From contig CBDBZY010000041.1 of the NCBI GenBank assembly GCA_965213685.1, positions 64,001 through 128,000 of the forward strand: a stretch of 64,000 nt of DNA, read 5' to 3'. This DNA is from a bacterium. Its GTDB lineage: Bacteria; UBA8248. The notes under the pieces were generated by a model, which saw only the letters and a program-made list of their open reading frames with translations, ran no database searches and was not told where the DNA came from. A program made the translations under genes and the position numbers. Below are positions 6,637-33,550 of the stretch, piece by piece (the stretch's first letter is position 1; each line of letters begins with the position of its first letter).

Positions 6637-7224
6637 ATGACTCACCGACCGGTAGTTCTACCAGACTCGTATTCTGGAGAAGCGGAGTTCTCTGAGTGGC
6701 ATGATCATTTTGAAAACGTCGCCGCAGTAAACAGGTGGGATGACGATGCTAAGCTGCTGTGGTTGAAGGTGCGACTGACAGGTCGAGCACAGAAGGCGTT
6801 CAAACGACTCCCGCAAGCGACGCAAGGAAACTACCAGCGCACCATGGAAGCACTGAAGGAAAGATTTGAACCTGGAAGCAAGCGTGAGCTGCACGTAGTA
6901 GAGTTCCACGCACGGAGGAAAGGTCGAACCGAAAGTTGGGCGGACTTTGCGGAGGACATTAAGACATTAGCGGACAAGGCCTACCCGGACTTGGAAGACG
7001 CAGCTCGAGAACGCTTGTCTTTAAATCGGTATCTGGAACAACTGGGAGATCCACAAGTAGCGTTTGGTGTGAAGCAAAGCAGACCGAAAAGCCTGGATGA
7101 AGCAGTTACGGCGACGCTGGAATTGGAATCGTATAAAGTCTCTGCACCGACTGCCTCTGTGTCGCAGGTCGCACCGGGCGATGGGGACGTGGAAGCTATC
7201 TCTGAGCCGACTACGCCAGTGTAG
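6637..7224 (+). CDS. Gypsy Gag (capsid-like), C-terminally truncated
   Basis: FSEWHDHFENVAAVNRW..LTGRAQ..LKERF..ESWADFA..LADKAYP is typical Gag. The ORF ends in an inserted inverted LTR fragment. Confidence 0.8.
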   Translation: MTHRPVVLPDSYSGEAEFSEWHDHFENVAAVNRWDDDAKLLWLKVRLTGRAQKAFKRLPQATQGNYQRTMEALKERFEPGSKRELHVVEFHARRKGRTESWADFAEDIKTLADKAYPDLEDAARERLSLNRYLEQLGDPQVAFGVKQSRPKSLDEAVTATLELESYKVSAPTASVSQVAPGDGDVEAISEPTTPV

Positions 7225-7287
7225 CGCACTGAGTTGCACTAGGAGCGACGATCCTGACAACCTCCAAGTCAGACTCAAAGATCTCAA

Positions 7288-10200
7288 ATGCAAGTGGTGG
7301 CAAAGGCTCTGAATGAAGTTGTTCAAAATTGTCAAAACCTCAGTCCAGTAGAAAAGGAGCAACTTTACCAACTTTTGCTTGCTTATTCAGATATATTTGG
7401 CACACAGCAGTCTGATTTGGGGCGCACTGACTGCATCCGGCACAAGATTGACACAGGAAATGCTCCACCAATCAGACAGAGAACCAGAAGACTAGCCCCT
7501 CATCAACACCAGGAAGCCAAGAAACTCGTTGAAGAGATGCTTCAAAAAGACGTGATCCAGCCATCCTCCAGTCCATGGGCAGCTCCAATTGTCCTCGTTC
7601 GGAAGAAAGATGGGTCAAGAAGATTCTGTGTTGATTACAGGAAGATAAATGCAATCACACGGAAGGATGCCTATCCAATACCACGGGTGGATGATGCACT
7701 GGACACTCTCAGTGGTTCACAATGGTTCACAACCCTAGACATGATCAGTGGCTACTGGCAAGTCGAAATGGATCCAGGCGATCGGGAGAAGACAGCTTTC
7801 TGCACACAAGAAGGATTATTTGAATTCAAGGTCATGCCCTTTGGCTTATGTAACGCACCAGCAACATTTCAACGCCTTATGGATGCCGTGCTGGCCGGAC
7901 TGCAATGGAAGACATGTTTAGTCTACCTGGATGACGTGGTGATTCCTGGAAGGGATTTTTTGGAGCACCTCTACAACATGAGAAGTGTGTTTGAACGCAT
8001 TAAACAGGCTGGGCTTAAACTACGCCTAAGCAAGTGCCAGTTCTGCCAAAAGAATGTCACCTTCCTTGGCCACATTGTTTCACCACAGGGAATAGCCACG
8101 GATCCCTCCAAGACAAGTAAAGTTGCAAATTGGCCTGCACCAACCTCCCAAAAAGAAGTACAGCAGTTCTTGGGATTGGCCGGCTACTATCGCCGATTTA
8201 TCAAAGACTTCGCAACAGTTGCTAAACCCCTACACCGACTCTCAGAGAAGACATGTCCATTCGTGTGGAGTGAAGAATGTCAGGTAGCTTTTGCGACACT
8301 CAGAAGGCTGTTGGTGACTTGTCCTGTGCTGGCTTTTCCTGACTACACCAAGCCATTCATCCTGGATACAGATGCCAGCGAACAAGGTATTGGGGCAGTT
8401 CTCTCCCAGGTACATGATGATGCTAAAGAGCATGTATAGTCGCATATGCCAGCCGTCTATTACGGAAACCTGAGACAAAGTATGGTGTTACCCGACGAGA
8501 ATTGCTGGCTGTTGTAGAATTCACGAAGCACTTTCGCCCTTACCTCTTGGGTATAGATCATTCACACTGCGTTCAGACCATGGTTCCCTGATCTGGCTTC
8601 AGAATTTTAAAAACCCAGACGGCCAGTTAGCCAGATGGCTTGAGCAGTTGGTGGAGTATGACTTCACCATTATACACCGAGCAGGAAGCAAACACGGAAA
8701 TGCAGACGCATTGTCACGGATACCCTGCCATCAGTGTGGAAGAGATAACCACTTTGAAGTGGTTGCAGTTGCTACCCCAACTGGTCAACGGCGAGAACAC
8801 CGAGACAAACACACTAGTGAGATGAGGAAGTTACAACTCTCAGACACAGTGATCGGGCCAATTCTGCAGGCAAAAGAAAAGGAACAGAAACCAAGCCTAG
8901 ATGATGTCAAGGTACAACCCCGTAGCACAAGTCGACTAGTGCAGCAATGGGACCAATTAGAGGTCAAAGGTGGCCTACTGTGGAGAGTAATGGAGAATGG
9001 AGGTGGTAATGAAGTACGGCAACTCATCGTTCCCCAAGGACTCAGAACTGAGGTTCTTCAGGAATTGCACTCAGGAGCAGTAGGAGGACACTTGGGAGAA
9101 GAAAAGACCTTGAAAAAACTCAAAGAGAGGTTTTACTGGCCAGGACATGCAAATGATGTGAAAAATTGGTGTCGAGCTTGTCCATCATGTTCAACAAGAA
9201 AAACACCTGCACCTAAGCAACGAGCACCCCTAGGAAGCCTTCAGGCTAGATACCCAATGCAAATTGTATCTGTGGACATTCTGGGGCCCCTACCAATGAC
9301 AGAGACTGGAAACTCTTATATCCTCGTGGTGGGTGACCATTTCACAAAATGGATGGAAGCTTACTCAATTCCAAATCAAGAAGCGAAGACGGTGGCTAAC
9401 AAGCTCATTGATGAATTCTTCTGCCGGTATTCCACACCTGAACAGCTACATTCTGATCAAGGAGCCCAATTTCAATCCAACCTTGTTGCTGAAGTTTGCA
9501 GGATTCTGAAGATTGGGAAATCACGAACAACACCCTACCACCCACAGTGTGATGGTGTAGTGGAACGATTTAATAGAACGCTCTTGGACATGCTGGCAAC
9601 TACCACAGGGAACCATCCTCATGACCGGGAAATACACTTGAGAAAGGTCTGCTTGGCATACAATACCAGTGTGCATTCAACAACAGGCTACTCACCATTT
9701 TACCTCATGTTTGGCCGCCAAGCTAGACTCCCAATTGACATTATGTGTGGCACTACCAAACCCTCAACCAATACAACTTATGGAGACTTTGCAAGCAGAA
9801 TGCAACACACTTTGGAAGAAGCTTATGACACAGCACGTGGTCGCACAAAAGCAAAACATGAACGCCAGAAGGAGATCTATAACAGCAAGTGCCATGGTAA
9901 ACCATTTGAGACAAATGACTTAGTTTGGCTTTATTGTCCTGCAGTTCCAAGGAACAAAGCCAAGAAATTTCATCATCCATGGACCGGACCGTGGAGAGTG
10001 ATAAAACGCCTCTCAGATGCAGTTTATCGCATACAAAGACTCACAGGGCATCGTAAGAGAACTGTTGTGCACTTTGACAGATTGAAGCGATGCCATCCAC
10101 ACTACATAAAGGAGACTCCTGAACAGTCTCAGCGTCTACCACAAACCCAAACAGGCACACCCACTACCCAGCCTGGCCAAAATCTACAGTTAGTGGATGG

Positions 10201-10324
10201 CATCTCAGATGGAGAAGACAGTGAAGTTTCAAGAACATCTCAGCAAGTGGCTAATCCAGGAGCTGCCACACAAAGTGCACAAACTGGAACACAATCACCC
10301 CGCTATCCGACGAGAAACAGATGA
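7288..10324 (+). pseudogene. Gypsy Pol: reverse transcriptase, RNase H, integrase; two +2 frameshifts
   Basis: RT: RFCVDYRKIN, MPFGLCNAPATFQR, YLDD. RNase H: TDAS. Integrase: H..GH..C..C, VDILGP, SDQG, VERFN. Removing TA at ~8437 and ~8554 restores one continuous frame. Confidence 0.92.
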
Positions 10325-10407
10325 CCTCCAGACTGGTATGCTACAGTAATATCGCACTAACTGCTTACATTGGAATCCGAGACGTATTCCTTCAGGAGAG
10401 GGAGTAA

Positions 10408-10666
10408 TGTGACAATGTCATTGTGGCTGTCCTTATGACTCATAGTGTATGGAACAATGGCAAGTGAATGACCTGATAAATCTATTACATATCTATTGTG
10501 TCATATCACTATCATCATGTTGTTTACTCTTGTATCATGCACCTCTTTGTCTGTGTGGCTATATAAGCCAAGACTGTACTGTACTCTGGGCGGCTGTACT
10601 GATGAGATTTCTCTCTTGCCACTGCTCCGAAGGATCGTCGCTCCTAGTGCAACTCAGTGCGCTACA
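10408..10666 (+). repeat. 3' LTR of the Gypsy element
   Basis: Starts TGTGAC directly after the PPT, ends GCTACA, with a TATATAA box at ~10559-10566. Confidence 0.8.
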
Positions 10667-10689
10667 CTAAGATGACCACAGGTGCTGCA

Positions 10690-10947
10690 TGCCTGGACAC
10701 CTGGCATGTTAATGTAACACCCCAGGTATGGGTGTCACAGTGTTGCTGTAACCACCAGGGTGTTCCAAAAGCACTCCTAGCTTTGACACCTGAAATCAAG
10801 GTGCTGAGACAGCACAAGGGGTGCTCCATTAGCACCCTATCGGTGTTATCTTGACAATGGAGTGTTGTGGAAACACTTAGGTGTCTGCATGACACACAGA
10901 AATTTGACACCCCGGTGCTTTGATAACACCCCATTTTTTTTACAGTG
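10690..10947 (-). mobile_element. One terminus of a CACTG (EnSpm/CACTA-like) element
   Basis: The minus strand begins CACTGTAAAAAAAATGGGGTGTT with repeated ACACC/GGTGT subterminal motifs. The other end was not found. Confidence 0.45.
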
Positions 10948-11649
10948 TATCGGCTGACTTACACTCCTAGCATCCCACAACATTTTTGGCATAAGTATGT
11001 CAAACGAAATGCTTAAAGGTGAAGGCTGACTATGTATAGTAGCGAAGCCCCCCATACGCACACCTGACGACCGCAAATGTAGTCGCGTCCGTCGGTCACG
11101 GTATAAAAGGCCCCTGCCCAGGGCACAACCTTTGACCCCTCTTGCACATGGCGGACCGATTCAAAATAGCGAGCAGCAACCAGCGCACTATCCACGTCCA
11201 CCACGGCACCTTACCCTTCGCTATGTACCGCTTTTAGCGCGAATAACGTTCATTCCGCGCGTCTTCGAGCGTTTGTCTGGTCGAAATAGCCCTGAACAGT
11301 TTGCCATGGCAGAATGACATGAGAGAAGCACTGAAGAGGGGAAGCCTGGGATCCAGGTACACAAATAAGTGAATATAGGTACATACAGAAAGATAAAAGT
11401 ACACTGCTACATAGGTACAGGTGCACTATGGTGGTCGTCAGCCTCCTCAGGCCTTTGTAGCTAGGCTGAATAGATTCCTCCAGGAGTCCAGGCCAGTGAG
11501 GCTTTGTCTGTCGATCAAGTGGATGGACGATGAGTGTGTGTGTCCACCACCGAAAAGGAGATGCACATGTATGCAGGAGGTAAACAACTTGACCCTGTAG
11601 CGGCAAGTGAACATGCTTGCACTTACAATTCTTACATTTACATATGCAG

Positions 11650-11880
11650 ACAGATACATAAGGGGGATCACCCCGTTCTGGGTCAACCCACTGACAAACC
11701 CCACTGTCCTCACTGTCTGTGCACACTGTGTGTGGTGGCACAGCCCCCAGACTTTCTGGTTGGCAGTTCAGCTGCCAGTTTCAACAATGTATCCAAGCGA
11801 TACAGCCTGTACAGAAAGTTCTGGGCATTACTATGGCAGTTGGGCGTGTGGGAGCACCCAACATATACTTGGAATAAAAC
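11650..11880 (+). pseudogene. Fragment of a small Cys-rich protein (CPHCLC..C, N..KRY.LYRKFW..LG.W), possibly a P2X7-ballast-like transposon accessory domain
   Basis: Motif pattern in ORF 11534-12118. TATA-like box at ~11102 and ATG at ~11148 upstream. Homology is from recall only. Confidence 0.3.
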
Positions 11881-12819
11881 AAAACAACACCACACACCAA
11901 GTATACCTCACCATCATTTGCATAACTGGCTTTCACTCCTCCACTGCAGCTTCCATAGCAAGTGTAATACATGCTTTCACAACATCTGTGTAGTGCTGCT
12001 TCTTGTACACTACAAATGTGTATATGAACACAGCAAACTAGAACGTTCATGTCTTACACCTAAGAGTAGATCTCTTGACATAGGACAAGAGGAGAAAGGT
12101 TGCAAAGGCATCCACTAGTGCATGAGCTTCTAATGTTCCACTGCCTTTGAAAGTGAATGCAGCACCTGAGGAAGGGCCTCCACAGCCACACCACAGTTGT
12201 AATTGTGGAGGGTGATGAGTGTGTACATGAGAATGATGAAGACAAGAGGGTAGACTGCTGTGATGTAGTCCAGAGAGAGTATCCGCAGCATTGTGGCATT
12301 TGGATGCAGGCAAGATGGAGGATAAACCAAAGTCAAGGTTCCATATGCTCAGATGGGCAATCAAAATATTGGCAGATATTGTACTGAAATTGTGCTAATA
12401 GTGGTGTATGTACCATGCCTCACTAATACATCAAGGTACAGGAGGTGAAGCAACAATCTGACAAAAACAAAAATTAATGATAAGGAAGCTAGTATGTAAC
12501 CACATTAAGTGCACTAGAGCTCTGGCCATGTTTGCATTAAAACCTGACCAACCACAGGGGCTGGTGATTGGCTGGAAGGAACAAGCATATCCAGACATCC
12601 AGCTGTTCTTAACCCACTACATAACATTGTTGCCTTTGTTCAATATACCATTTTCATTGTTTTGACCAATATAGTGAAAGGAGACTCAGTCAAGAAACAG
12701 GTTAATGGTGAATGTCCTGTGTCATTCCTGGTGAAACATGGACTCTGTTTACCCAACATCTGCTTTTTAACAGGATGGTGTTGTAGCAACTAGCTGCCAA
12801 ACTTACCTCTTCTCTTTCT

Positions 12820-13680
12820 CTAAAGCAAGCATAGAATTGAAATTCTGCCTCCAAAGCTCACAACAACAAAAGAAGCCCTCTCAATATTATCTAATACTTC
12901 GAAGTCTTTAAAAGCCTCTCCTATATATAATGTGGACCTGAGCTTAACCATGCACTATTCCCTACTGCTATCCTTGTAAACAGGACACTCCCATAAAACC
13001 TGCACAACACTCTCACACTCATCGCCACATAAAACACACCCAATCCTGCCATTCCTTCCCTTATGCCTACCTAACTCCTCATTCAAACCATGTGTTCCTG
13101 ACCTAAATTTAAACAAGAGTCTAATTCTGGCATCACTAACCCCATGAAGATACCTCTTGAACTCTACTTCCTTACCAAATGTTTCATACAACTCTAACTT
13201 AGCTATCCAATCCTTCCACATACTCCTTACTTTCCTTATTATTTACACATTCATTCACATTCGACAATAACAGGCTTAATGGACATTACCCCTTCCTAAC
13301 AATTCTCCCTTATGCAATCCTAGCACATCTACATACATATTTCAAGGCTTCCTCTGTTTTCCTCTATACGTGGTTTCACCTTGGACACCTCCTTACTGGC
13401 ATAGATGCTAGTTTATACCACCATTTGTCTCTACAACTCTTCAAGGTTCTAAACCCATGTCCCCTCTAACTGCCTCATTATACAGGTCCTAGAAGAGCAT
13501 CCAAGAATTGTTTTGCTCTCCCCAAGAGAATAGATTCTAAGGCACTTGCCTGACATTTATTGCACTCCCAACCTTCACTATATTATATATACTCTATAGA
13601 TAGATGCTAGGTCTAAGGACTGACAGAAACAAAAGTCTTCGGGCACTCACATTTCTATTCCTATTACTAGTAATACTGTG
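12820..13680 (-). mobile_element. Degraded non-LTR retrotransposon 3' region (RT C-terminus + zinc finger)
   Basis: LLFKFRSGTHGLNEELGRH..CVLCGDECESVVQVLWECPVY, with multiple stops upstream. Confidence 0.7.
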
Positions 13681-14876
13681 AATAGAGATAAAGAAGTACT
13701 TTCTAAGAGATTTGACAAGAGAGCCATTTAGAAATTATTATTCCACAAAGGTGGCATTAACGTATGAACAGCTGTCACTGTAGAGAGGCTATATAGCGAT
13801 TATGATGTCCTCCATCTGGACACCAACTGCTTTCACATTAGTGTACATGCAGATAAACACAATCATGCACATACACAAAAACATACACAAAAGCACTATT
13901 GCACACACAGTGAGCAGTATAGTAAGTATGTCCTTTCAACTTCCTCCTCACACTTGTTTGATGGAAAATTGCTGCCATCAATAATGCTGCATTCACTGTT
14001 TGAACATCCAGTGCCCAATCTCTGCACCACAAAGGAGGTTCCTATGGGCTCTCCATGCAGTATCCTCGTGAACATGTGCAACTGATCTCACAGATAAAAA
14101 GCCTTTTCTGATTCTCCCCATGTATCCAATGTCTCAATGCATACAGGAGAGAAAACATACTATTAATTTTATGAGGAAGTGAGGGAGGCACACATTTCTC
14201 TGCTTGAGATCTTCTACTCCACAGGCCACCATTGCAACTCCCCTACTACGCAGCAAATATATTTGTTGGTTTGACAATGATGCTTGTTATGTGGGACTCA
14301 TTGGAAGTTTGGATTTCATTCACCATAAATACCTTTTGTGCTGTCAGATCTGTATATATATATATATATATTACTCAGTTACAACATACAGGGACGTTCT
14401 TGTGCTTCAGGCTGCAACCATACAGTGAATGACCCTGGAACAAGGAAAGGGTACACTCTACTAGTAGTCTAATAATCTATAGGAATCTGTCTGCCCCAGA
14501 TACACACTCTGTTACACAGAATGATTGTTACATGCATTTCTCCTCCTTCTGGCTGCCCTACATTGCAAACAGAAGCACTACTTGTACTCTGGTCTCAACG
14601 GGCAGTATCTCATATGACAATCATGCATTGTTAAAGCAACAGATCCCTTTTGCTGTGCAGTCACAGTGGGATGAAATGAAGAGTGTTAGCAGTTTTAGCT
14701 AAATTGTGGACTGACAAAAGAATTTACAGCTATGTTGCAATGTGAACCTACAGACAAAGTTATTCACTCTTTAATGTAGTTACTGTTGCACCTGTGTACT
14801 GTGCTGATGGTTAGTTTGATATCTGGGGTCACCCCAGAGTACTGAAAACAACCTGGAGAGAATGGCATGCAACCAC

Positions 14877-14994
<118 letters not shown>

Positions 14995-15130
14995 AGTGTG
15001 ACTTTAAATAACATAGCACACTGTGAAATAAAGAATTTGTTGCGTTAAAATTTATTTAATCATGTGAGGCATTGGACACAACTGCATCCTGCAGATGTGT
15101 GGCGTGTTCATGTTGAAGCTATAGCACAAC

Positions 15131-15578
15131 TAGACCTTACGGGACCTTTTGCCAAAACGTGGAATTGAATAACTTTGTGGCACGTGATCAGTAACCGTTA
15201 GCTGAGCAAAGTCCTGAGACTGGTCCTGAGACTATACTGCAGGCAACCCTAGGACGAAATACATGAAAGCTTGTGCTCTAAAATATGGTAAAGTGTATGA
15301 CTACACAATCCCCAGCTTCTCCATGATCAATTACCGCTTAGATCTATACATGAGAAGGTCTAGCCATTGACTAAGCCATTTAGCAATTCAGTTTGTTTAA
15401 CTCTTGGGGCTCGAAAGTCAAACATGTCGTAAAAGGCCTAAACTTTGTTCTGATACTTGTTTAAAGCGAAGATCGTCGGGGCTCGCAGGTGCAAAAACAG
15501 CAAATTATTCTATGGTGGTTTAGTACAGTAAGCATGGATGACGTAATCCCGAATGGAAAAAGGTCACGTAAAGGTTAA
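15131..15578. mobile_element. Degenerate MITE
   Basis: ACCTTACGGGACCTTTT at ~15134 is an imperfect reverse complement of AAAAGGTCACGTAAAGGT at ~15558-15575. Confidence 0.45.
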
Positions 15579-16162
15579 GGGTGGTCAGACATTATGAATA
15601 TTAATGAGGCATGTGGTTGCTATGCTATTATATCTCGCAAAGTACAGTGCCTACCAATGTCGCGTTTGGGCCCTTATAGACACTGCAGACACTGCAACTC
15701 GTATACCAAGTTTCACAGCTCCAGCTTACCTAGTCACCGATAGTTACGGCGGTAAAATCTTGGACTCCTTCTCTATAAAACTTCTTAACCGATTTACCTA
15801 CCTCCCTGAAACTCAGGTACCAGGGCTATTCGAGCAAGCGCTAGCCATTAACGTGGCCGTTTTCACCGTATCTAGTACGCAAGCACGGGTTTTTGAACGT
15901 TTCTCGAATTTGGAGCGTTCAATTCGGAAAAACTCCACGTTACGGTCTGCGGTACCTGCCCACGATGACGCCAACGGAAGGTCGTCCCAATCAGGAAAAG
16001 CGCTACGGAGTTTTACAGAGTTATGCACGCTGCATACTTTAGACGAGCCAGATCTACTACGCTAATGCGAGCAGCTTTGCATATGGCTTCTACTAATTAA
16101 CCACGAAGCCCAGATCTGCGCATTCCTTTAGAGCCGCACAGTATCCATGTCCCCGACCACCC
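15579..16162. mobile_element. Kolobok-type MITE (TTAA TSD, GG..CC termini)
   Basis: TTAA-GGGTGGTC ... GACCACCC-TTAA. An empty-site duplicate lies at ~16211-16320. Confidence 0.75.
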
Positions 16163-16487
16163 TTAACCGTGTCGACCCTGACCTCTGGAACGAGGCTATA
16201 TACCTCACGAAAAAACAGCAAATTATTCTATTGTGAGTACAGTAAGCATGGATGACGTAATCCCTAATTGAAAAGGTCACGTAAAGGTTAATCTTGTCTG
16301 GAACGAGGCTACCTCACGACATACTCCTAGCGGCCTTTGGCCATTGCGTAATCTTTTCCGTTCTAGTATAAAGAAACGAAATTTTTGAGAGTCGCCAATA
16401 TTAAAAACTTTACGGTACTCCACTACCCTCGTACGCGGACGGCTATTCCACCGCCAAAGGGTCGAGGCTAGGTATTCCACGATCCAC

Positions 16488-17357
16488 ATGGCGTACTGCA
16501 GAGTAGACTTTAGCGATCTGGTAGATCTGCGTGAGAGACTGAAGCCAGAATTGCCTAGAGCCGGTTCATTGTGCACTTCCGTCAGGAACGTGATCGAAGG
16601 ACGAGTGGAGGGCCATTTCTACACGGACGGATGGCCAGAGTTCACCACGGTCGTATTCCAGTGCCTCCAGCCCAGACTCTCTGATGAATGTGACCTCCAC
16701 TGCTACACTACCTCCAAACAACGGCTACCCTCTCTCCTGGAGCAGGCTCACCTCGTGACCAGCGGTCAGTGGCAGTACGTGGAAATTGTGGAGGATGATG
16801 CTAACACAGTAACCGATTACTTGGTCCAAAACCTCCAACTTGATGGAAAAGCCAAATTGCTCCCAACCATTGATTACTCAGTAACGGAATATAGAATGTA
16901 TGCCTTGCTAGAACAGCTCCCAACTACCAATACTGAGTGTCCTGAGGGTTACATCCTTGGGAGACTGACAGTTGAACACAGTACATTTCTGTCATTTCAA
17001 GGAGGTCAATGGGTTAACTCCCTGGGAAGGCCTCCTAGTGTGGTAAAGGAGTATTATAAACAATGCATCCAGAGGTTTCCTAGTGCTGCTGCCTACTGTG
17101 ATTCTGATCCTTCCACACTAGTCGCCTGGCAGATGCAACATGCCCACAATGGTGCATTGGGAAACCTCTTCACTGTTGAAGGACATCGAAGGAAAGGGTT
17201 GGCTACTGCTGTCAAGCATGAAGTATGTCAGATGATCTTGGCTCGGGGTGATACTCCAATATCATCAGTACATCCATCATCAGTTCCAAATATCAAAGTG
17301 CATGGCAAACTAGGCTTCAAACATGTTGGCATTGTTAAGGACCTGTACCTGCATTAA
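16488..17357 (+). CDS. GNAT-family acyltransferase, glycine N-acyltransferase (GLYAT)-like, copy 1, intronless, 289 aa
   Basis: N-terminal FYTDGWPEFTTVV. C-terminal GNAT motif A LFTVEGHRRKGLATAV and H.KLGF. Confidence 0.85.
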   Translation: MAYCRVDFSDLVDLRERLKPELPRAGSLCTSVRNVIEGRVEGHFYTDGWPEFTTVVFQCLQPRLSDECDLHCYTTSKQRLPSLLEQAHLVTSGQWQYVEIVEDDANTVTDYLVQNLQLDGKAKLLPTIDYSVTEYRMYALLEQLPTTNTECPEGYILGRLTVEHSTFLSFQGGQWVNSLGRPPSVVKEYYKQCIQRFPSAAAYCDSDPSTLVAWQMQHAHNGALGNLFTVEGHRRKGLATAVKHEVCQMILARGDTPISSVHPSSVPNIKVHGKLGFKHVGIVKDLYLH

Positions 17358-21810: not shown

Positions 21811-22080
21811 ACTCAATCACTGTTACTTGGTGGTCATGGTACATATTCATAAAGCAAAATTACCTGTACGAGGGCTGTCAATTTTTCTCAGGGCCACACT
21901 GCCTCACACTGCAAGGCTTGAGAGTGTTCATGCACATATGCATCTAGAGTTTGTATGTGTAGTAGCATAATTATATTACTGACAGTATTTTTGTATGCAG
22001 CACTGCGCCAGTACGTGGTGGGAAGGTGCACCCCAATCCTTTTGAGCATGCGCACTGATACGCAAGGGTCAGAGGTCGTG

Positions 22081-23034
22081 ATGGCAATGTTCAGTCTGCT
22101 CGCTTGTGTCCGACGCCTTCGTTGGCCGTTATGGACGCGGAAGGTTGTTCAACACCACGCTACCGACACGTCGACACACAGCTGTACCGCTATCCGATTA
22201 GACACCAGTGATCTGGGGCAGCTACGTGCGAAGATGAAGGCAGGACCACCTACAGCTAGTGCATTATGTAATTCACTCAGGAACGTGATCGAAGGACGAG
22301 TGGAGGGACATTTCTACACGGACGGATGGCCAGAGTTCACCACGGTCGTGTTCCAGTGCCTCCAGCCCAGACTCTCTGACGTGTGTGACCTCCACTGCTA
22401 CACTACCTCCAAACAGCAACTGCACTGGGTCTTGGAACAGGCTCGCCTCGTGACCAGTGGTCAGTGGCAGTATATACAAATTGTGGAGGATGATGATGCA
22501 GTAGTTGATTATGTGGTCCAAAACATCCGACCCAATGGACAAACAAGGTTGAGCCGTGGTGATTATGCAGTACATGATAATGGAATGTATGCACTTGTAG
22601 GGCAGCTCCCAACCACCAGTGCCGAGTGTCCTGAGGGGTACAGACTTGGAGAGCTGGCAGCTGAGCACAGCACACTTGTGTCATCTCAAGCAGGCATGTG
22701 GATTACTTCATTTGGACAGGAGAAATTCATGAAAGAATGTATCCAGAATCTTCAAAGTGCCGCTGTCTTCTGTGATTCTGATCCCACCACTCCAGTGGCT
22801 TGGTGCATGCAGTTTGGTGTGAGTGGTGAGGTGGGCAATCTCTACACACTCGAGGAGTACCGAAGGAAAGGTCTAGGCACTGCAGTGAAAAGAGCATTTT
22901 GTCGGAAGCTGTTATCTCAGGGAGATATACCATTTTCAGTTGTTCTAGATGGTGCACCTACTAGTAGTGTTAAGTGGCAAAGCAAAGCTGCATTTCAGCA
23001 CGTTGGCAGAATGAAAGAGTTGATCTTGTTTTAA
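22081..23034 (+). CDS. GNAT/GLYAT-like acyltransferase copy 2, with an Arg-rich N-terminal extension (possible mitochondrial presequence)
   Basis: MAMFSLLACVRRLRWPLWTRK precedes the shared core. Motif A LYTLEEYRRKGLGTAV. The ORF is open from 21955, so the start choice is inferred. Confidence 0.8.
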   Translation: MAMFSLLACVRRLRWPLWTRKVVQHHATDTSTHSCTAIRLDTSDLGQLRAKMKAGPPTASALCNSLRNVIEGRVEGHFYTDGWPEFTTVVFQCLQPRLSDVCDLHCYTTSKQQLHWVLEQARLVTSGQWQYIQIVEDDDAVVDYVVQNIRPNGQTRLSRGDYAVHDNGMYALVGQLPTTSAECPEGYRLGELAAEHSTLVSSQAGMWITSFGQEKFMKECIQNLQSAAVFCDSDPTTPVAWCMQFGVSGEVGNLYTLEEYRRKGLGTAVKRAFCRKLLSQGDIPFSVVLDGAPTSSVKWQSKAAFQHVGRMKELILF

Positions 23035-23468: not shown

Positions 23469-23834
23469 TTAGACCATAGCCACCTCAAATCCTGCAATGT
23501 GATTGGTCAGCAGAAGGGCTCTGAAAACTCATAGATCCCTACAGAATCTACATGAATTGGCTATAGTGCCCTACAACTTTATCAAATTACCCTAACAGTT
23601 TTCTTGTTAAAGTTGTAGACTATATGTTAAAGTTGTAGGGCTCTATGATGTTTACTTGTTAAAGTTGTATAATTGCCAGACTATGGTCTAAACAACTTAG
23701 ATACTGTGTCCAATGGGATCTACGGTATTTAGAAACCCGAGGGCCCTGGGCTGTAGTGTCCCGAGCGCAGCGAGGGCACTACTAAGGGCCCGAGGGTTTC
23801 TAAATACCGTAGATCCCTTGGACACAGTATCTAA
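23469..23834. repeat. Two-module palindromic cassette element (M1+M2)
   Basis: TTAGACCATAG..CTATGGTCTAA, spacer ACAAC, then TTAGATACTGTG..CACAGTATCTAA. Second copy at 31883-32238. Confidence 0.85.
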
Positions 23835-26411
23835 CTGTTATGTATGATGACTCAAGCAAAGATCAAAGTATATAACCACAGCCACTTTAGAAAAATGCTC
23901 TAGCCACATCCTGCCATGTCGATTGCAGATAGAACATGGAAGAGTCTGCACAATTCCCCATACTTTATATGTCAAACTTCTTAGAAAAACCACAGTGGGT
24001 CTATAATGACCGCCACGATATCAGGAGGTAGAAGTACTAAGAAACTATGAACGCACAAGCTGCATACTGTACATGTATATACGCTGCTTTTAAAGTGTCC
24101 AGTCCAGTGGTAATGGATGGTCAGGCAGGTGCTGAGGAGCATATAGACTTATGTAATCAAGATTCCTTTCCTTGCTTCCCCTTTCCCATGAACCTAAGCA
24201 GCTGGCATGGTATTGTCTCAACTGGCAATGGGATAGTGAGAGCACATGCACACTCACTGCGATGGTACTGAGTGGTAACAACCCTCTCCCCTATATATCT
24301 ATTGCACAAGATGTACAATAGGCAGTGAAGTGTGGAGCACTTTGTCACAAAGGACATCATCCCTTAACTGGCATATGAGGAACCATTGTACTATTGTAAC
24401 ATCTCACATGTGTGGTATTGCTACATCAGCAGTAGTAATATAAATTCATTTTAATTGCAGATGACATACAAATAATATGCTTGTACTTGTACATGATGTC
24501 ATACAATTTAAGGGATGAAGTGGAGTGTTCATGAGTGCACAGAACTAAGTTTAAACCTAAAGGACTGTGGGAAAAGTGTGTGGTGTGGAGGAGTGAGATG
24601 TATTTCTTCATGTACATCTGCAGCAGTAATAAATTATGCCTTGTACATGTAGATGACAGCATACAAAGTTGTTTATTGACGACATCATAAAATTAACAAA
24701 AATGAAGATTATCATTCATGAGTCCACAGAATGGCAGTTGAAAAGGTCTTGATGAACTGAGGGTGGATGAGCGGAATGGATGGAAGGAGTAAGATGATGG
24801 ATTTGTGTTGTACTTCGACCTGACTCAGAAAGGCTATGGCATGTGTACTCACATGTACATGTATAGACACATGTATGTGTGCATAACATGTGTCAGTCTT
24901 TTTGTGTACGTGTGTGCTATTTGTAACACGTATGAACAAATTTAATTGAGGAAGAGAGCACAGCGCAGGTGACGTGGCACATGTCACAAGTACACCAGTT
25001 CATAATGAAACAACTGATCATATTCCCTGTCACAATAAATAATCAGTCTAGTCTTTTCTTGGTTGAATGTACATGTGCATCAAATGACAAGAGCTCTCAT
25101 TTAGTGTTTTCACCAGGTGTTCTAGTAGTAACTTGGAAGGTGTATCTTTCCCACACACTTATTTTTGTGTGTTATTTTCTTACAACCTGACTTTTTATTT
25201 CCATAGTCATCTCCCCCCCCCCCCCCACACACACACACTTGACCTTCCCACCACTAACCTCTGTCTCCTCTCTTCCCTTCCCCCTCCTCCCTTTCTCTCT
25301 CCCAGGAGTTTTCCAATGCCTGAAGAGAGAGGAGGGGAAGGTGAGGGAGGAGCGGAGTTGATAATTGTTTCATTTTCTTCACAGGCAGCCAGCCAAGTAG
25401 GTGCTCTGGATACTGGCTACATGCCAGGAGTGACCAAGAAGGACCTGAAGAATGTCAAGTTCCTCTATCTCCTGAGGGAATTAGTTTGAACACCACCTCC
25501 CCTCTCTTCCCCTTCCTTCAATCTCTCTCCCTCTATTTTGCCTCCATCACCTCCTCTGTTCACTTTCCCTCTCTCCACTGACCTCCCCTCTCTACTATCT
25601 CCTTCCTTACTCCCTCCTTAGCCTCCTACTTTCCACCTCTCTTCACCTTCATCTATTCCCCAGGATTCGGGTTATATCACAAGTGTAACTTCTTTGTGAT
25701 GTTATATATAATTACATGACATTGTACATATTTGTAGAGATCATAGTAATGTTAGTGTGTTCAAGCATGTACATTGTCATACATAGCCAGGAAAGAATGT
25801 AATTCTACATTGAGTGTTACTTGCAATGGTCTCTAACATAACTATTCAAATTCTGTCAGTCGCAACTAAAAATGATGTATACAGTACTGTTGAGTAAGAG
25901 TTTTGTCTTCCTAGTCATACATGTACTTTGGCTGAAAATAAGAACCAGCAGCTGAAATGAGCAATACACTAGACAGTTATATACAGCTACTAAAGTTCCA
26001 AAATAGTTGTGATGTCTGGTGTTTGCAACAGGAGTTTTAGGTTAGCATAAGTCATCAATATATAGCTAATTAAAATAGCGTCACAGTATGTATTGCTAGT
26101 GCAATAACTGGGGGGTGTGGCCCTTCCATAGCCATGGGTGACAGCCCCCCCCCCCATCCCCCCTGTATTTCTTACACCAGTGTTGAAGCACATGGCAACA
26201 CCTGAAGGCATAGTGATGACTAGTATGTAACATAAGTACACATGCTGCATCTTCTGTGTGTGAACATAGAGTACTGTCTTCTTGCTACAATTTGGCTGCA
26301 ATAGAAAACTTAAGATTAGCAATACAGTATACACACCACACATAACTTAGTCTGTGACATACAGCATGGTAGAGTGATGTTCTATTGCGATATATTGTGT
26401 ACTGATGTCTC

Positions 26412-28848: not shown

Positions 28849-29734
28849 GGCATTTGCGGGTGTTGAAGGGCGTTCATAAAGCTGTAGGTACTGTTTGGCA
28901 AGTTTCAGAGTTGTGTTTTGTTACGACAGGGATTGCTTCTTTTATTTCTGCCTTAGGACGCTTTTGGCACCTAATGAGATTTTTTACATTATGGCAGCAA
29001 TCCGCCCAGTAACTGTGGTCTCCGGGACAATGTAGTTTTAAAGAGTTAATAGACTTTTCGTAACTAGTCCAAATTTCAGCCCCCTCCCAAAATATTGACG
29101 CCTAAAAAACTTTATTGAGAGGAGTAGATGGAGCATTCTTTCTCCACTGAAAATGTTTTAAGTACTTTCTTCAGTGGAGAAAGAATGTTCCATCCTGTAT
29201 GGTTGTTTTTGGGGGAGGTAATGGGCTTCTATTTGAGGGTATGATAGTTGTATCTGGGGGGTGTATACTTCTATGGATGTATGGTACCGTAGTTTGGGGG
29301 CGGGGGGTATATATGGTACTTCTACCCACTACCATACCCCCCAAATAGAAGTACCATACCCCCAAAATAGTATCCTCCGTTCATACCGTAATTCGCACTT
29401 GTTTTAATTGAGAGAAGTGCATAGCGTAATTTTGACACTAATTTCCCCCCATAATACCTGCGCCCGTATCTCTAATGAACATTCCGACTTAGTGGAGTCT
29501 TATCCAGGGCCTACGTGGACAAGCGACTGTACTTTAGCAGTGAGCGGGCTCATCATAGGCGCTAGATCGAATCACAGGCTATATTCCTTCTGTACTTTTG
29601 TAGCCTCGTTTCCAGTCCACTCGGCGGGAGCACTTGAAAGCCGCGGGTGCCGCCGCGGCAGCTGCGTTCAGTTTGCCAGCCGCGTCGCCGCCACACCTCT
29701 TGTAGACAACCAACTTCCTTCACATTCCACATGC

Positions 29735-30612
29735 ATGGCCTACTGCAGAGTCGAATCTAGTGATCTGGTAGAATTGTGTGAGAGACTATAAAACTAGAAT
29801 TACCGAGAGCCGGTTCTTTGCTCATTTCCGCCAGGAACGTGATTGCAGGACGAGTGGAGGGAAAGGTCTACACGGACAAATGGCCAGGATTTAGTACAGT
29901 CGTGTTCCAGTGCCTCCAGCCCAGACTCTCTGATGAATGTGACCTCTACTGCTACACTACCTCCAAACAACAATTGTGTTGTGTCCTGGAACAGGCTCAC
30001 CTTGTGACCAAAGGTCAATGGCAATATATACAAATTGTAGAGGATGATGATAGTACAGTAACTGATTATGTTGTCCGCAACATTCGATCTGAGGGAGAAG
30101 TGAGATTGATCCATTCTAATGATTACTCAGTACAAGAGTTTGGAATGTACACCTTGCTGGGACAGCTCCCAGCTGCCAGTGCCGAGTGTCCTGTAGGGTA
30201 CAGGCTTGGAAGGCTGGCAGTTGAGCACAGCACATACATATCATCTCAATCAGGGCAATGGGCTTTGGCTTTGGGAAGACCTGCCGGTGTCGTGAAAGAG
30301 TACTTCAAGCATTGCATTCAGAGGTTGCCTAGTATTGCTGTCTACTGTGATTATGATTCTATCACACCAGTGGCCTGGCTGATGCAACATTCACCAAATG
30401 GCACGTTGGGAGGTCTCTTTACTGTTGAGGGGCATCGAAGGAAAGGGTTAGCTACTGTTGCTGCACGTGAAGTATGTGAAGTGATCATTGCTCAAGGTGA
30501 TACTCCAATGTCATGTATTCGAGACGGGTCATCTAGTGTCAAACTGCACAGCAAACTAGGGTTCCTACACGTTGGCAATGAGAAAGATGTGTACTTGCAC
30601 ATCAATGAGTGA
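29735..30612 (+). pseudogene. GNAT/GLYAT-like copy 3, +2 (TA) frameshift near codon 18
   Basis: AGACTATAAAAC here versus AGACTAAAAC in copies 4 and 5. The remainder is open and nearly identical to copy 4. Confidence 0.85.
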
Positions 30613-31882
30613 ATATTGTAGTTACAGACCACAGCATAGTTCATCGTAAGTGTCCTTTCAGTTTGTGTATAGTCTTTATACAGGTGTGTATTATCTTTAT
30701 ACAGGTGAATATGAACCAGTACGTAATTTAGGTATGCATCTTTAATGTACACGAAGCCGATGCCAATTGTAAATCGGTATATATCCCGTTTGCGGCACTG
30801 AACGAGATAACTGTAAACTATTTTCAGAGACGCATGTTCGGTCAGACCCTCACGTGCACGTGCGCCACGGTACGGCCCGCGGGTATGCTGGGCACGAGTG
30901 TTTCCCGGCCATACTTGTATCTCGTGCTTGATGGGAGCCATTGCTGGAATGGTTTTAGATTTATATTCTCTATGATAATAATAAAATGGGATACTCTGAT
31001 AACGTGGAGCCCACAGTATTGCATCATGTGAAGTACAATCATGTGATTTGACTGTGAACAGGTTTGCTTAGCATGATCGATATTCAAACATAATAATATG
31101 AAACCTGCTTGCACCACAGCAGCAGTCTCACAAATCAAAAGCACTGGTGGTATGCAGTTTTTCTCCTAATAGCCTCTGCTTGCATGATGTCATTCAGCTG
31201 CAACTGAGATAACCTTAGCAAGGTTAAAACAACCATCTCTTTTTTGCAGTGTAGGCAAGCTTTCTTATGGTGTATGATAAACTGCAGTGGCCCACAAGAG
31301 GTGAGTGAGTTTCAGCACCAGGTGTATGCCTGAGCTTACAAAAATCAGTTTGGTACGTACAAGAGGGACAGTGCTGTGATACAAAAATGCTACACTACAC
31401 CCACAAGATGCATAACACTAGAAACATACATAAGCGTAGTTTGCCTAGACTCGTTACTACCATACACAACAGTATAGACACAGGTGTTTCCTCTCTGCAA
31501 GCAGAGGGTTGGTGGCTGTGCTAGCTTACCCACTCCAGTCACACTTCCATACCACTCTCCCACAGTCTCCCCTCCATACCCACTTCCAAACCAGTGTCCT
31601 TGTGTGTACTGCTCATGCAGCCCTATCCCCTCACTGCTGCCCCACTCCTGCGTTCTGCAGATGTGTTTCAAAACCTTGCATGTTTGGCCAGACCTTCCCC
31701 TTCTCATTTCACTCATGCACACATGTCACAGAATGTGGTCTGGTTTACAAAATTAGCCAACCACCAAACTAGCAGGAGACTTGATGGAGACACACTCTTC
31801 CTTCTCCTTCCCTGTCCCATCTCCTTGTCCTTTGCTCTACCATACCCCCCAAATAGAAAGTTCATACAGTAAATCCCACTGG

Positions 31883-33410
31883 TTAGACCATAGCCACCTC
31901 AAATCCTGCAATGTGATTGCATGGTCAGCAGCAGGGCTCTGAAAACTCATAGATCCCTACAGAATCTACATGCATGAATTGGCTATATAGTGCCCTACAA
32001 CTTTAACAAATTACCCTAACAGTTTTCTTGTTAAAGTTGTAGGGCACTATGATGTTTACTTGTTAAAGTTGTATAGTTGCCAGACTATGGTCTAAACAAC
32101 TTAGATACTGTGTCCAATGGGATCTATTGTATTTAGAAACCCTCGGGCCCTTAGTAGTGCCCTCGCTGCGCTCGGGACACTATAGCCCAGGGCCCTCGGG
32201 TTTCTAAATACCGTAGATCCCTTGGACGCAGTATCTAAATATAGGTTAGATACCGAGACCATGGGATCTATGGGCTTTAGAAACCCGAAGGCCATGGGCT
32301 GTAGCGTCCCGAGCGCAGCGAGGGCGCTACTAAGGGTCTGAGGGTTTCTAAAGCCCATAGATCCCATTGGTCGAGGTATCTAACCATTTTAGAGTATAGG
32401 CATGTTTTCATGTAGAAGTTGTAATGGAGGTGTCATGTTAGACATGTTTTCATGTACAAGTTGTAATGGAGGTATCCAGTTAGACATGTTTCATGTAGAA
32501 ATTGTAGGAGAGATCATGTTTTCGTGTACAATAGAGATCTGTAATGGACCAATCAAATGCACTCAAGTAGTAATACTATACTCTAACTGTTATTTAGACC
32601 ATTCCATCTGTACGCGTGGAATTCAATTACATGACTTCCGGTCCAGTCAGTGGTGATAAAGATTTTATCATACGCAACCCTTATACACGATTTTATATGG
32701 TGGTATATGGGGACTCTCGCACATATTCGCGGCGCTCTACATACATCTACGTGATACGCAATCGGCACGTGCCCTATACCGCTGTAAAGAGCGAAGTTCG
32801 AACTAGCCGACGGTGAAAGGAGCGAGTTTTTTGACCGCTGCGCTCAGGAGTTAGGTCTGGGTAAGAAGACAATGTTTCCAACCACTTCTTGGTCTGGCGG
32901 ATCGTGAAGAGAGCAGCCTGGTGAGTCTTCCATGGCTCTACCACCTCTGAATGTATGTGTAACTACTTTCCTGGCTGTTTGTAGTGTCAGACTGTGAGTG
33001 GCGTCTAAGGAGCCTGGATACTGGACACCCACGGGGCTACGCCACGACGTATGCGCTGCTCCGACTCCCTAGACGCCCCACACTCACATTCAGAGGTGAA
33101 TATAAGACTCACCAGGCTGCTCTCTTCACGATCTGCCAGACCAAGAAGTGGTTGGAAACATTGTGTCCTTATCCAGACCTAACTCCTGAGTGCAGCGGTC
33201 AAAAAACTCGCTCCTTTCACCGTCGGCTAGCTCGAACTTTGCTCTTTACAGCGGTATAGGGAGGTATATAGTGCGTCGCGAAGATGCGAAGGTCTCCATA
33301 TACCACCATATAGAATCGTGAATAAGCGTTGCAATCTTTATCACCCCAGTGCATTAAAAAGCCAATGAAATATAATTGCATACTCTATGCTCTTAAAGAA
33401 AAGGGCCTAA
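31883..33410. mobile_element. Array of five palindromic cassettes inserted into duplication unit B
   Basis: Modules 31883-32095, 32101-32238, 32246-32383, 32389-32586 and 32594-33410, each TTAGA..TCTAA (last ends CCTAA). Absent at the paralogous sites ~29400 and ~44895. Confidence 0.8.
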
Positions 33411-33550
33411 TAAGAGAAGTGCATAGCGTAATTTTGACACTATAATTTCCTTCATAATACCGGCGCCCATATGATGGCATATCCCGACTTAGTCAGTGGA
33501 GTCTTAGCCACAGGGACTAAGTGGACAAGCGACTGTACTTTGACAGTAAG

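Follow-up and report, generated by a model that had tools for sequence, protein, structure and literature searches.

An array of palindromic modules in animal DNA from a mixed bacterial bin is a stack of three non-coding mobile elements, with a possible link to Crypton-type recombinases

Does a row of palindromic modules that abut through short, regular spacers represent a cassette array of the integron type, or another kind of mobile DNA? The question is raised by a block at positions 31883-33410 of a 64,000-nucleotide stretch (hereafter the window), which corresponds to C41:64001-128000 of assembly G000. The original prediction, made from the letters of the window alone, divided this block into five self-complementary cassettes (M1 to M5) accreting by site-specific recombination into each other's ends. 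We show here that the array consists of three non-coding mobile elements stacked into one another, and not of five cassettes. All copy counts given below come from the 22 contigs of the assembly with 33-54% G+C (4.9 Mb), which derive from one host and are referred to as the host contigs.

The pattern that suggested cassettes is real. The TTAGA and TCTAA ends and the spacers ACAAC, ATATAGG, CCATT and CTGTTAT were all confirmed at their positions, as was a shorter version of the array, M1-ACAAC-M2-CTGTTAT, at 23469-23841. Enrichment of the junction motif was confirmed as well, since TCTAA-N(5-7)-TTAGA occurs five times in the window compared to 0.20 expected, and none of 100 shuffles reached five. 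In the host contigs the enrichment applied to the 5-nt spacing (29 sites, compared to about 2.3 expected per spacing), whereas only five sites with 7 nt and one with 6 nt were found. The enriched 5-nt junction is internal to one element and does not lie between cassettes, and the 7-nt "spacers" are element tails. Self-complementarity, which had been attributed to all five modules, holds for M2 and M3, near-perfect 138-nt palindromes that form one hairpin family and are 82% complementary to each other. In M1 and M4, in contrast, it is confined to terminal inverted repeats of 11-14 nt that enclose internal or tandem repeats. M5 does contain a palindrome (approximately 32652-33345), but its ends are not inverted repeats and its closing CCTAA is partly flank.

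Read from left to right, the array is composed of element A, an inverted element B, the tail of A and M5 (Table 1). On the minus strand, element B shows a head (TTAGAGTATAG), a tandem-repeat body (a 42-nt unit in 2.6 copies), the sequence CTATACTCTAA, the spacer AATGG, a hairpin and the tail CCTATAT. It lies exactly between the hairpin and the tail of A, and four intact A copies without B represent the corresponding empty sites. The apparent gain or loss of M3 and M4 as separate units is in fact one insertion of one inverted element. M5 has no terminal hairpin or tail, and its palindrome of about 690 nt is bordered by unrelated ends. A second copy of these ends was not found in the host contigs and M5 is therefore left unclassified; its inner arms have one partial relative, at C41:223050-223437. 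The block had also been described as absent from two paralogous sites, one of them reading TTCTAA. At these sites, near 38957 and 48040, homology stops 46 nt before the block, but a real empty site does exist elsewhere in the window (Table 1). It reads CACTTG-TTTTAAT-TGAGAG and not TTCTAA, and no target-site duplication is visible in it, as had been observed originally. A further empty version was found in one contig of the public run X1, which joins 31867 to 33413 via ...TCGTTTTAATTG. We hold this anatomical reinterpretation (three elements, a fixed composite build, no duplication and a site preference) with high confidence.

Elements A and B share a common build. Each starts with an 11-nt head (TTAGAnnATAG), usually has ATTGG at position 34 and continues with a tandem-repeat body. 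The head then recurs in inverted form, before a spacer of 5 nt, a hairpin of 110-150 nt and a 7-nt tail (C-N3-TAT). Matching of heads to 3' modules defined the families A, X, B, D, F and G, and a further family, H, has the head motif and the hairpin in common with A, X and B. A matching 11-nt head (at most one mismatch) was found upstream of 18 of the 21 3' modules that were strictly defined; where the partner is the correct one, the distance is 164-641 nt. Spacers (5 nt) and tails (7 nt) do not vary within a family and move with the unit; CTGTTAT, for example, ends all 10 A- and X-family units of the strict set. Body X (TTAGAGCATAG...CCTATGCTCTAA) is unrelated to the body of A and varies from 164 to 312 nt through repeat number, and yet it precedes an identical ACAAC-M2-CTGTTAT at six loci. 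Altogether the hairpin module follows at least six different bodies in the host contigs. Other copies of B are located at G000:C64:446780-447549, with an X unit nested in its body, and at C2:49523-49830. Hairpins without a body occur only in truncated copies, and 5'-truncated copies with intact 3' ends exist. The ATTGG at position 34 is found in 12 of 18 elements from four families, mostly inside CTGATTGGTCAG. This longer sequence, a CCAAT box on the other strand, occupies head positions 29-40 in A, X, B, D and H (window 31911-31922 and 23497-23508, for example). In another family (TTATACCATGC...), a head-like unit TTAGACCTCTGA...CTGATTGGTCAG is itself tandemly repeated. Both the counts of TTAGA-ended inverted repeats relative to random 5-mers and the ranked outermost 5-mers of exact inverted repeats were dominated by TACATG-type microsatellites. 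The family appears to be undescribed, and differs from HINEs (elements associated with Helentrons) and from Cryptons as these are described.

For the terminal hairpin in its uninterrupted copy (23682-23850), the DNA fold has an energy of -62.1 kcal/mol (z = -15.6). Since the spacer of 5 nt is base-paired to the beginning of the tail, the hairpin includes both. Pairing at the base of the stem is kept across families by double changes, which were found in 7 of 20 consensus pairs. Comparison of window positions 23702-23839 and 32101-32238 showed that about 55 nt in the centre have opposite orientations in these two copies of A, while the asymmetric arms keep the same orientation. This resembles a "flip/flop" arrangement, with the minority "flop" state in 3 of 16 distinct hairpins of the host contigs. 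Summed contig depth over the hairpin was about 10 times that over any body in four runs, and reached about 170,000-227,000 in run X1, where M1 had 9,000-17,000 and the flanks 36-56; these depths are not copy numbers. The high depth fits one hairpin type common to many families. A search with the 31-nt hairpin core gave no match in public genome and metagenome contigs.

Insertion sites provide the explanation for the ordered appearance of the array. Filled and empty sites agree only if B spans TTAGAG...CCTATAT without duplication, or with shift-equivalent readings, and no target duplication is seen in either the B-in-A or the paralogous empty-site comparison. In the right flanks of 21 ends, the first position is never C, the second is T in 19, the third is A in 19 and the fourth is G or T in 18, which gives D-T-A-K. 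DTA stands to the right of the element in 17 of the 21 ends compared to a background of 0.045 (p of about 6e-20). In the left flanks of 29 unique heads, T occupies -9 in 17 cases and -1 in 18, A occupies -8 in 23, and G is absent from -7. The preferred target is thus approximately TAH-N5-T^DTAK. It forms a rough palindrome (TAH-N6-DTA), and the joint is located at one edge of it. The solo A copy fits this consensus, having T at -9, A at -8 and T at -1, followed by GTAT. The head TTAG of the elements agrees with the right-flank DTAK as a short microhomology.

Resident heads (TTAGA) themselves fit the right half of this target, so that units abut end to end instead of nesting at random. TTAG follows 3 of the 21 strict ends compared to a background of 0.0025. 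One A lies directly 5' of the TTAGACC of M5, another directly 5' of an H-family head at C41:53066, and an X unit directly 5' of the B head at C2:49523. The point at which B entered is one edge of the 7-nt spacer in the joint TCTAA-CTGTTAT-TTAGA. Insertion into each other's ends, as originally proposed, is thus partly supported by the entry of B at a TCTAA-N7-TTAGA joint, although the units involved are not separate cassettes.

Table 1. Features of the transposon block, of its reference copies and of the surrounding DNA. Coordinates refer to the window unless a contig is named.
Feature	Coordinates	Strand	Remarks
Element A, head and body (M1)	31883..32095	+	5' inverted repeat TTAGACCATAG; ATTGG at position 34; internal repeats; 3' subterminal inverted repeat CTATGGTCTAA
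Element A, spacer ACAAC and 138-nt terminal hairpin (M2)	32096..32238	+	
Element B (ATATAGG + M3 + CCATT + M4)	32239..32586	-	Between A hairpin and A tail
Element A, 7-nt tail CTGTTAT	32587..32593	+	Separated from its hairpin by B
M5, unclassified foldback of about 0.8 kb	32594..33405	+	Starts TTAGACCAT directly after A tail; right boundary uncertain by about 5 nt
Intact solo element A	23469..23841	+	Hairpin tip inverted ("flop") relative to 32101-32238
Paralogous empty site for the whole block	29330..29545	+	...CACTTG TTTTAAT TGAGAGAAGTGCATAGCG
Ty3/gypsy-type retrotransposon interior	6637-10324		RVT_1, RNase H, integrase with zinc-binding and C-terminal domains
Five tandem, intronless-looking FR47/glycine N-acyltransferase (GLYAT)-like open reading frames	16488-17357, 21955-23034, 29818-30612, 36403-37278, 44901-45959		
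Single-copy Helitron-like gene set	G000:C64:108199-114491 (L008 6199-12491)	+	DUF6570, Helitron_like_N, PIF1 helicase and C-terminal OTU protease, in several frames

It was suggested that the five modules are separately mobile palindromic cassettes, gained and lost singly by site-specific recombination as in integrons. This explanation accounts for the shared TTAGA starts and TCTAA ends and for the enriched junction motif, and it could accommodate a hairpin module common to different bodies with a tip that inverts between copies. It is, however, extremely unlikely. M1 was found by BLAST at seven loci (those on C16 and C71 being apparent duplicates with a decayed tail), and at all seven it is followed by ACAAC-M2. 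M4 never occurs without M3 (3/3 loci), and no solo body lacking a hairpin was found among 16 A, X and B copies in the host contigs. This fixed order of a single element is the very outcome that the original prediction had named as speaking against itself. In addition, spacers and tails are constant per family, the 5-nt enrichment is internal to the element, and no recombinase gene was found in the array or beside it. The integron-like reading was wrong about the units, but the observation behind it is real and non-random, and the idea of a recombinase survives with added support. Chance nesting of DDE-type cut-and-paste miniature inverted-repeat transposable elements (MITEs), either PIF/Harbinger-like with TTA/TAA or Tc1/mariner-like with TA duplication, would be in line with the terminal inverted repeats, the small size, the TA or TTA that adjoins both ends and a genome rich in palindromic MITE-like repeats. 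We regard it as very unlikely too, given that removal of a TA duplication leaves four extra bases at the B-in-A site and that TTA is present on only 7 of 21 right flanks. Moreover, TA on the left is preceded by a T with 100% conservation, whereas the flanks are not mirror images, and the ends are asymmetric, with hairpin and tail at the 3' end only.

Which enzyme might then mobilize these elements? A search for heads retrieved a 2.4-kb member of family H, H-long (G000:C64:1318383-1320787), which corresponds to the H copies of 0.45-0.49 kb over its initial 139 nt (91%) and in its 3' module (86%). Inside H-long is an antisense, frameshifted open reading frame (ORF) with QRICH1-like and DUF3504 matches (E values for DUF3504 of 5.6e-12 and 8.8e-9). 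DUF3504 is the recombinase domain of Cryptons according to the available text of PMC3212892. In the broken ORF one can recognize the motifs FALRSGREHRQLR, NHFLRAT and SHRS..SYKR, which fall at the invariant blocks YFALRSG.EHRQLR, KTNHSLRAT and GHRS..G...YKR of its intact relatives, and also the R, HxxR, H and Y motifs. Intact relatives are 430-520 amino acids in length, and 27 of the 29 found have DUF3504 together with PF00589. The only other DUF3504 locus in the host contigs (C64:1164.7-1165.7k) is collinear with H-long from the ORF to a decayed H-type spacer, hairpin and tail, and the homology ends at the tail. A third and more distant recombinase-like fragment, N-terminal, was found at C18:122987-123325. 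Its distance to a palindrome of about 180 nt is about 100 nt, and that to a G-family tail is about 370 nt. That palindrome (G000:C18:122632-122810) has reversed polarity (TATAA...TTATA) and lies between the G-family tail and the fragment. Since both ends are common to the short H copies and H-long, the standard pairing criterion makes the recombinase-bearing element the partner of short H. The Crypton link of the original prediction is thus strengthened by a sister-family copy that holds a broken DUF3504 gene between family-type ends, but the elements in the window are non-coding. On these grounds the window family may be composed of non-autonomous derivatives of a Crypton-type tyrosine-recombinase transposon, a proposition that we consider evenly balanced.

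Several points weigh against such an origin. The link consists of two decayed, related copies of sister family H, and not of A or B, and the window elements A, B and M5 encode nothing. H-long could be a non-autonomous element that captured, or was invaded by, a Crypton. It also carries an unrelated nested repeat at positions 169-741 and lacks a counterpart to the middle 163 nt of short H. A canonical tyrosine recombinase needs identical overlap regions in both partners. Here, the 7-nt tail is constant per family but the 7 nt to the left of the head vary. Spacing of the two TA dinucleotides also differs by one base, being 8 nt in targets and 9 nt in the presumed circle joint. Moreover, animal Cryptons are reported without terminal repeats in the accessible part of PMC3212892, unlike the present elements with 11-nt inverted repeats (at most one mismatch) in 18 of 21 and a terminal hairpin. 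The overall architecture matches that of HINEs point for point, as far as the available descriptions go (PMC4067079; PMC7492417), and the host contigs also contain a Rep/helicase/OTU gene. The N-terminal recombinase piece had no match in public metagenome contigs, which provided no further host sequence. Searches with the recombinase profile gave no match in public genome contigs, in viral contigs or in other genomes of the family to which the bin is assigned (0/41). No tail-to-head joint of a single family was found in the assembled contigs of public runs, although such contigs cannot show absence.

The same anatomy could belong to non-autonomous rolling-circle elements of the Helentron/Helitron2 type. 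According to this explanation, a Rep/helicase would nick T|TTAGA and displace a single strand. It would terminate at the 3' inverted repeat with its giant hairpin and TAT, and insert at T|DTAK without duplication. Resident heads would mimic the nick site and draw new copies, and the recombinase of H-long would be captured or nested cargo. Gene capture is indeed common among rolling-circle transposons of this class. The definition of HINEs in the available parts of PMC4067079 and PMC7492417 fits well, with subterminal inverted repeats of 11-15 bp, the 3' one being followed by a palindrome, central tandem repeats, no target modification and a boundary T. The 5'-truncated copies with intact 3' ends also agree with it. 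A candidate enzyme is encoded in the host contigs, where a Helitron_like_N, PIF1 and OTU gene is located at G000:C64:108.2-114.5k and a second Rep fragment at C64:1180.8k; Helentrons can bear OTU proteases (PMC4067079, available text).

However, no TTAGA head, ATTGG box or hairpin-tail module was found close to either Rep locus in the host contigs. The Rep gene is surrounded by palindromes (palA, palB and palC) that are unrelated high-copy repeats with tens to hundreds of BLAST matches. The repeat lying 5' of the gene continues upstream in other copies and shows no relationship to the TTAGA family. The ends of this Helitron-like element were not found at C64:108199-114491. The locus was rejected as autonomous partner, as no shared termini were found and its flanking repeats are unrelated. 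The target does not appear to be TT either, with T at +1 in only 8 of 21 and at -1 in 18 of 29, the strongest signals being TA at +2/+3 and A at -8. A roughly palindromic target suggests recognition of duplex DNA by a symmetric enzyme, which argues against rolling-circle transposition. The hairpin of 110-150 nt contrasts with the palindromes of 5-10 bp reported for mite HINEs, and the H-long ORF is a whole recombinase gene fitted tightly between the ends and not a gene fragment. No publication that combines "Helentron" and "sponge" was found in titles and abstracts. Because of the physical link in H-long, the roughly palindromic target, the TTAG/DTAK microhomology and a circle joint with the layout TCTAA-N7-TTAGA, we favor a Crypton-like recombinase, to which we assign an even chance, over Helentron- or HINE-like rolling-circle transposition, which we regard as possible but less probable. 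The roughly palindromic target consensus thus adds to the recombinase idea of the original prediction, while the rolling-circle enzyme is still a rival to it.

If a Crypton-like recombinase is responsible, it would recognize TTAG-like and TCTAA-like half-sites. A circular form would join tail to head, creating TCTAA-N7-TTAGA, and this joint would recombine with a TTAG-like microhomology in the target. Resident heads and tail-head joints would then act as preferred targets, resulting in end-to-end stacking. One possibility, which we consider rather unlikely, is that the elements represent a new animal Crypton-like lineage, with a site assembled only in the excised circle (TCTAA-N7-TTAGA), a hairpin of about 140 nt that is read folded as in integron attC with a tip flipping two ways, and arrays arising from the half-sites left by each copy. 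Since the ATTGG/CCAAT box of the head faces the recombinase gene from the other side of the joint, a promoter might form in the circle only.

These alternatives have different consequences. The ends and target choice of animal Cryptons are essentially undescribed. If the present elements are Crypton derivatives, they offer TCTAA-N7-TTAGA as a defined candidate site, together with a target consensus and short substrates in abundance, so that the mechanism could be tested directly. If they are Helentron-like, that group would come to include elements with a strongly different terminator and target, probably from a sponge. In both cases, mimicry of the site by element ends yields ordered stacks that resemble cassette arrays.

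The DNA that carries the block deserves comment, as its bacterial label is misleading. Assembly G000 (7.97 Mb, 71 contigs) is a mix of contigs with about 65% G+C and the 22 host contigs, which make up 4.9 Mb of its 8.0 Mb, and the largest low-G+C contigs bear animal genes and repeats. The window is animal DNA within this mixed bacterial bin, as indicated by its sparse coding regions, its Ty3/gypsy reverse transcriptase and integrase, its FR47/GLYAT-like ORFs and its Kelch repeats. The transposon block sits in the spacer after the third FR47/GLYAT-like ORF. Since several public runs containing the stretch are labelled "sponge metagenome", the host is probably a sponge; no RNA run was listed among them. 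Marker-gene contamination of G000, a species-representative assembly, is given as only 3.68% despite the 4.9 Mb at 33-54% G+C. In practical terms, a "bacterial" species representative can consist mostly of such contigs and still read 3.68%.

Other repeats were encountered in the window. Rfam models at gathering thresholds gave no match in the block, and the only Rfam matches were two weak ones to the tRNA model near 49 kb, at 49041-49113 (minus strand) and 49382-49444 (plus strand). One of them is a tRNA-Tyr with the odd anticodon ATA according to ARAGORN; both may be short interspersed elements (SINEs) or tRNA-derived repeats. The palindromic repeat palB, of about 390 nt, is present at window 37609-37826 (C41:101609-101826) and at about 45 other loci with 94-98% identity, and at C64:588270 a copy replaces the tail of a hairpin module. 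Its ends (TTAAGGCAGGACGACC.../...GGTCGTCCTGCCTTTAA) suggest a TTAA-targeting MITE.

How does this family compare with known systems? With foldback elements and palindromic MITEs it shares the long palindromes of M2, M3 and M5, and the host contigs are full of other palindromic repeats. The present hairpin is nevertheless never independent, but is the 3' terminal module of asymmetric elements. Integron arrays also have imperfect hairpins with conserved inverted core motifs at unit boundaries (attC), and a tyrosine recombinase (IntI in integrons) may be involved here too. The present elements differ in that they occur in a eukaryote and their units are entire transposons that include bodies and heads; neither an integrase nor attI is adjacent, orientation is mixed and copies are dispersed genome-wide.

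A closer likeness is found in HINEs and DINE-1-like Helentrons, including Cg_HINE of oyster. In the available descriptions (Thomas et al. 2014, PMC4067079; PMC7492417), these have a 5' inverted repeat, a 3' subterminal repeat with a palindrome, central tandem repeats of variable number, no target modification and 3' ends shared modularly between families. The present hairpin is, however, ten times longer, the target resembles TAH-N5-T^DTAK rather than TT, and the ends lack T-runs. No Rep/helicase partner with the present ends was found in the 4.9 Mb, and the sole gene between such ends is a tyrosine recombinase.

CryptonA comprises animal DNA transposons that encode a DUF3504 tyrosine recombinase. 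With CryptonA, as far as it is covered by the available text of PMC3212892 (Kojima and Jurka 2011) and PMC13465315 (on Glomhopper), the common features are of another kind. H-long of the sister family encodes, in a broken gene, a QRICH1-like, DUF3504 and PF00589-type recombinase. Target duplication is absent, and the TTAG/DTAK microhomology is comparable to the direct repeats of 4-6 bp of Cryptons. Short non-autonomous copies with both ends of the long copy exist in both, as exemplified by CryptonI-1N1_RPro. Whereas animal Cryptons are described there without terminal repeats, the present family carries inverted repeats of 11-14 nt, an ATTGG box, a hairpin of 110-150 nt, a 7-nt tail and satellite-like tandem repeats.

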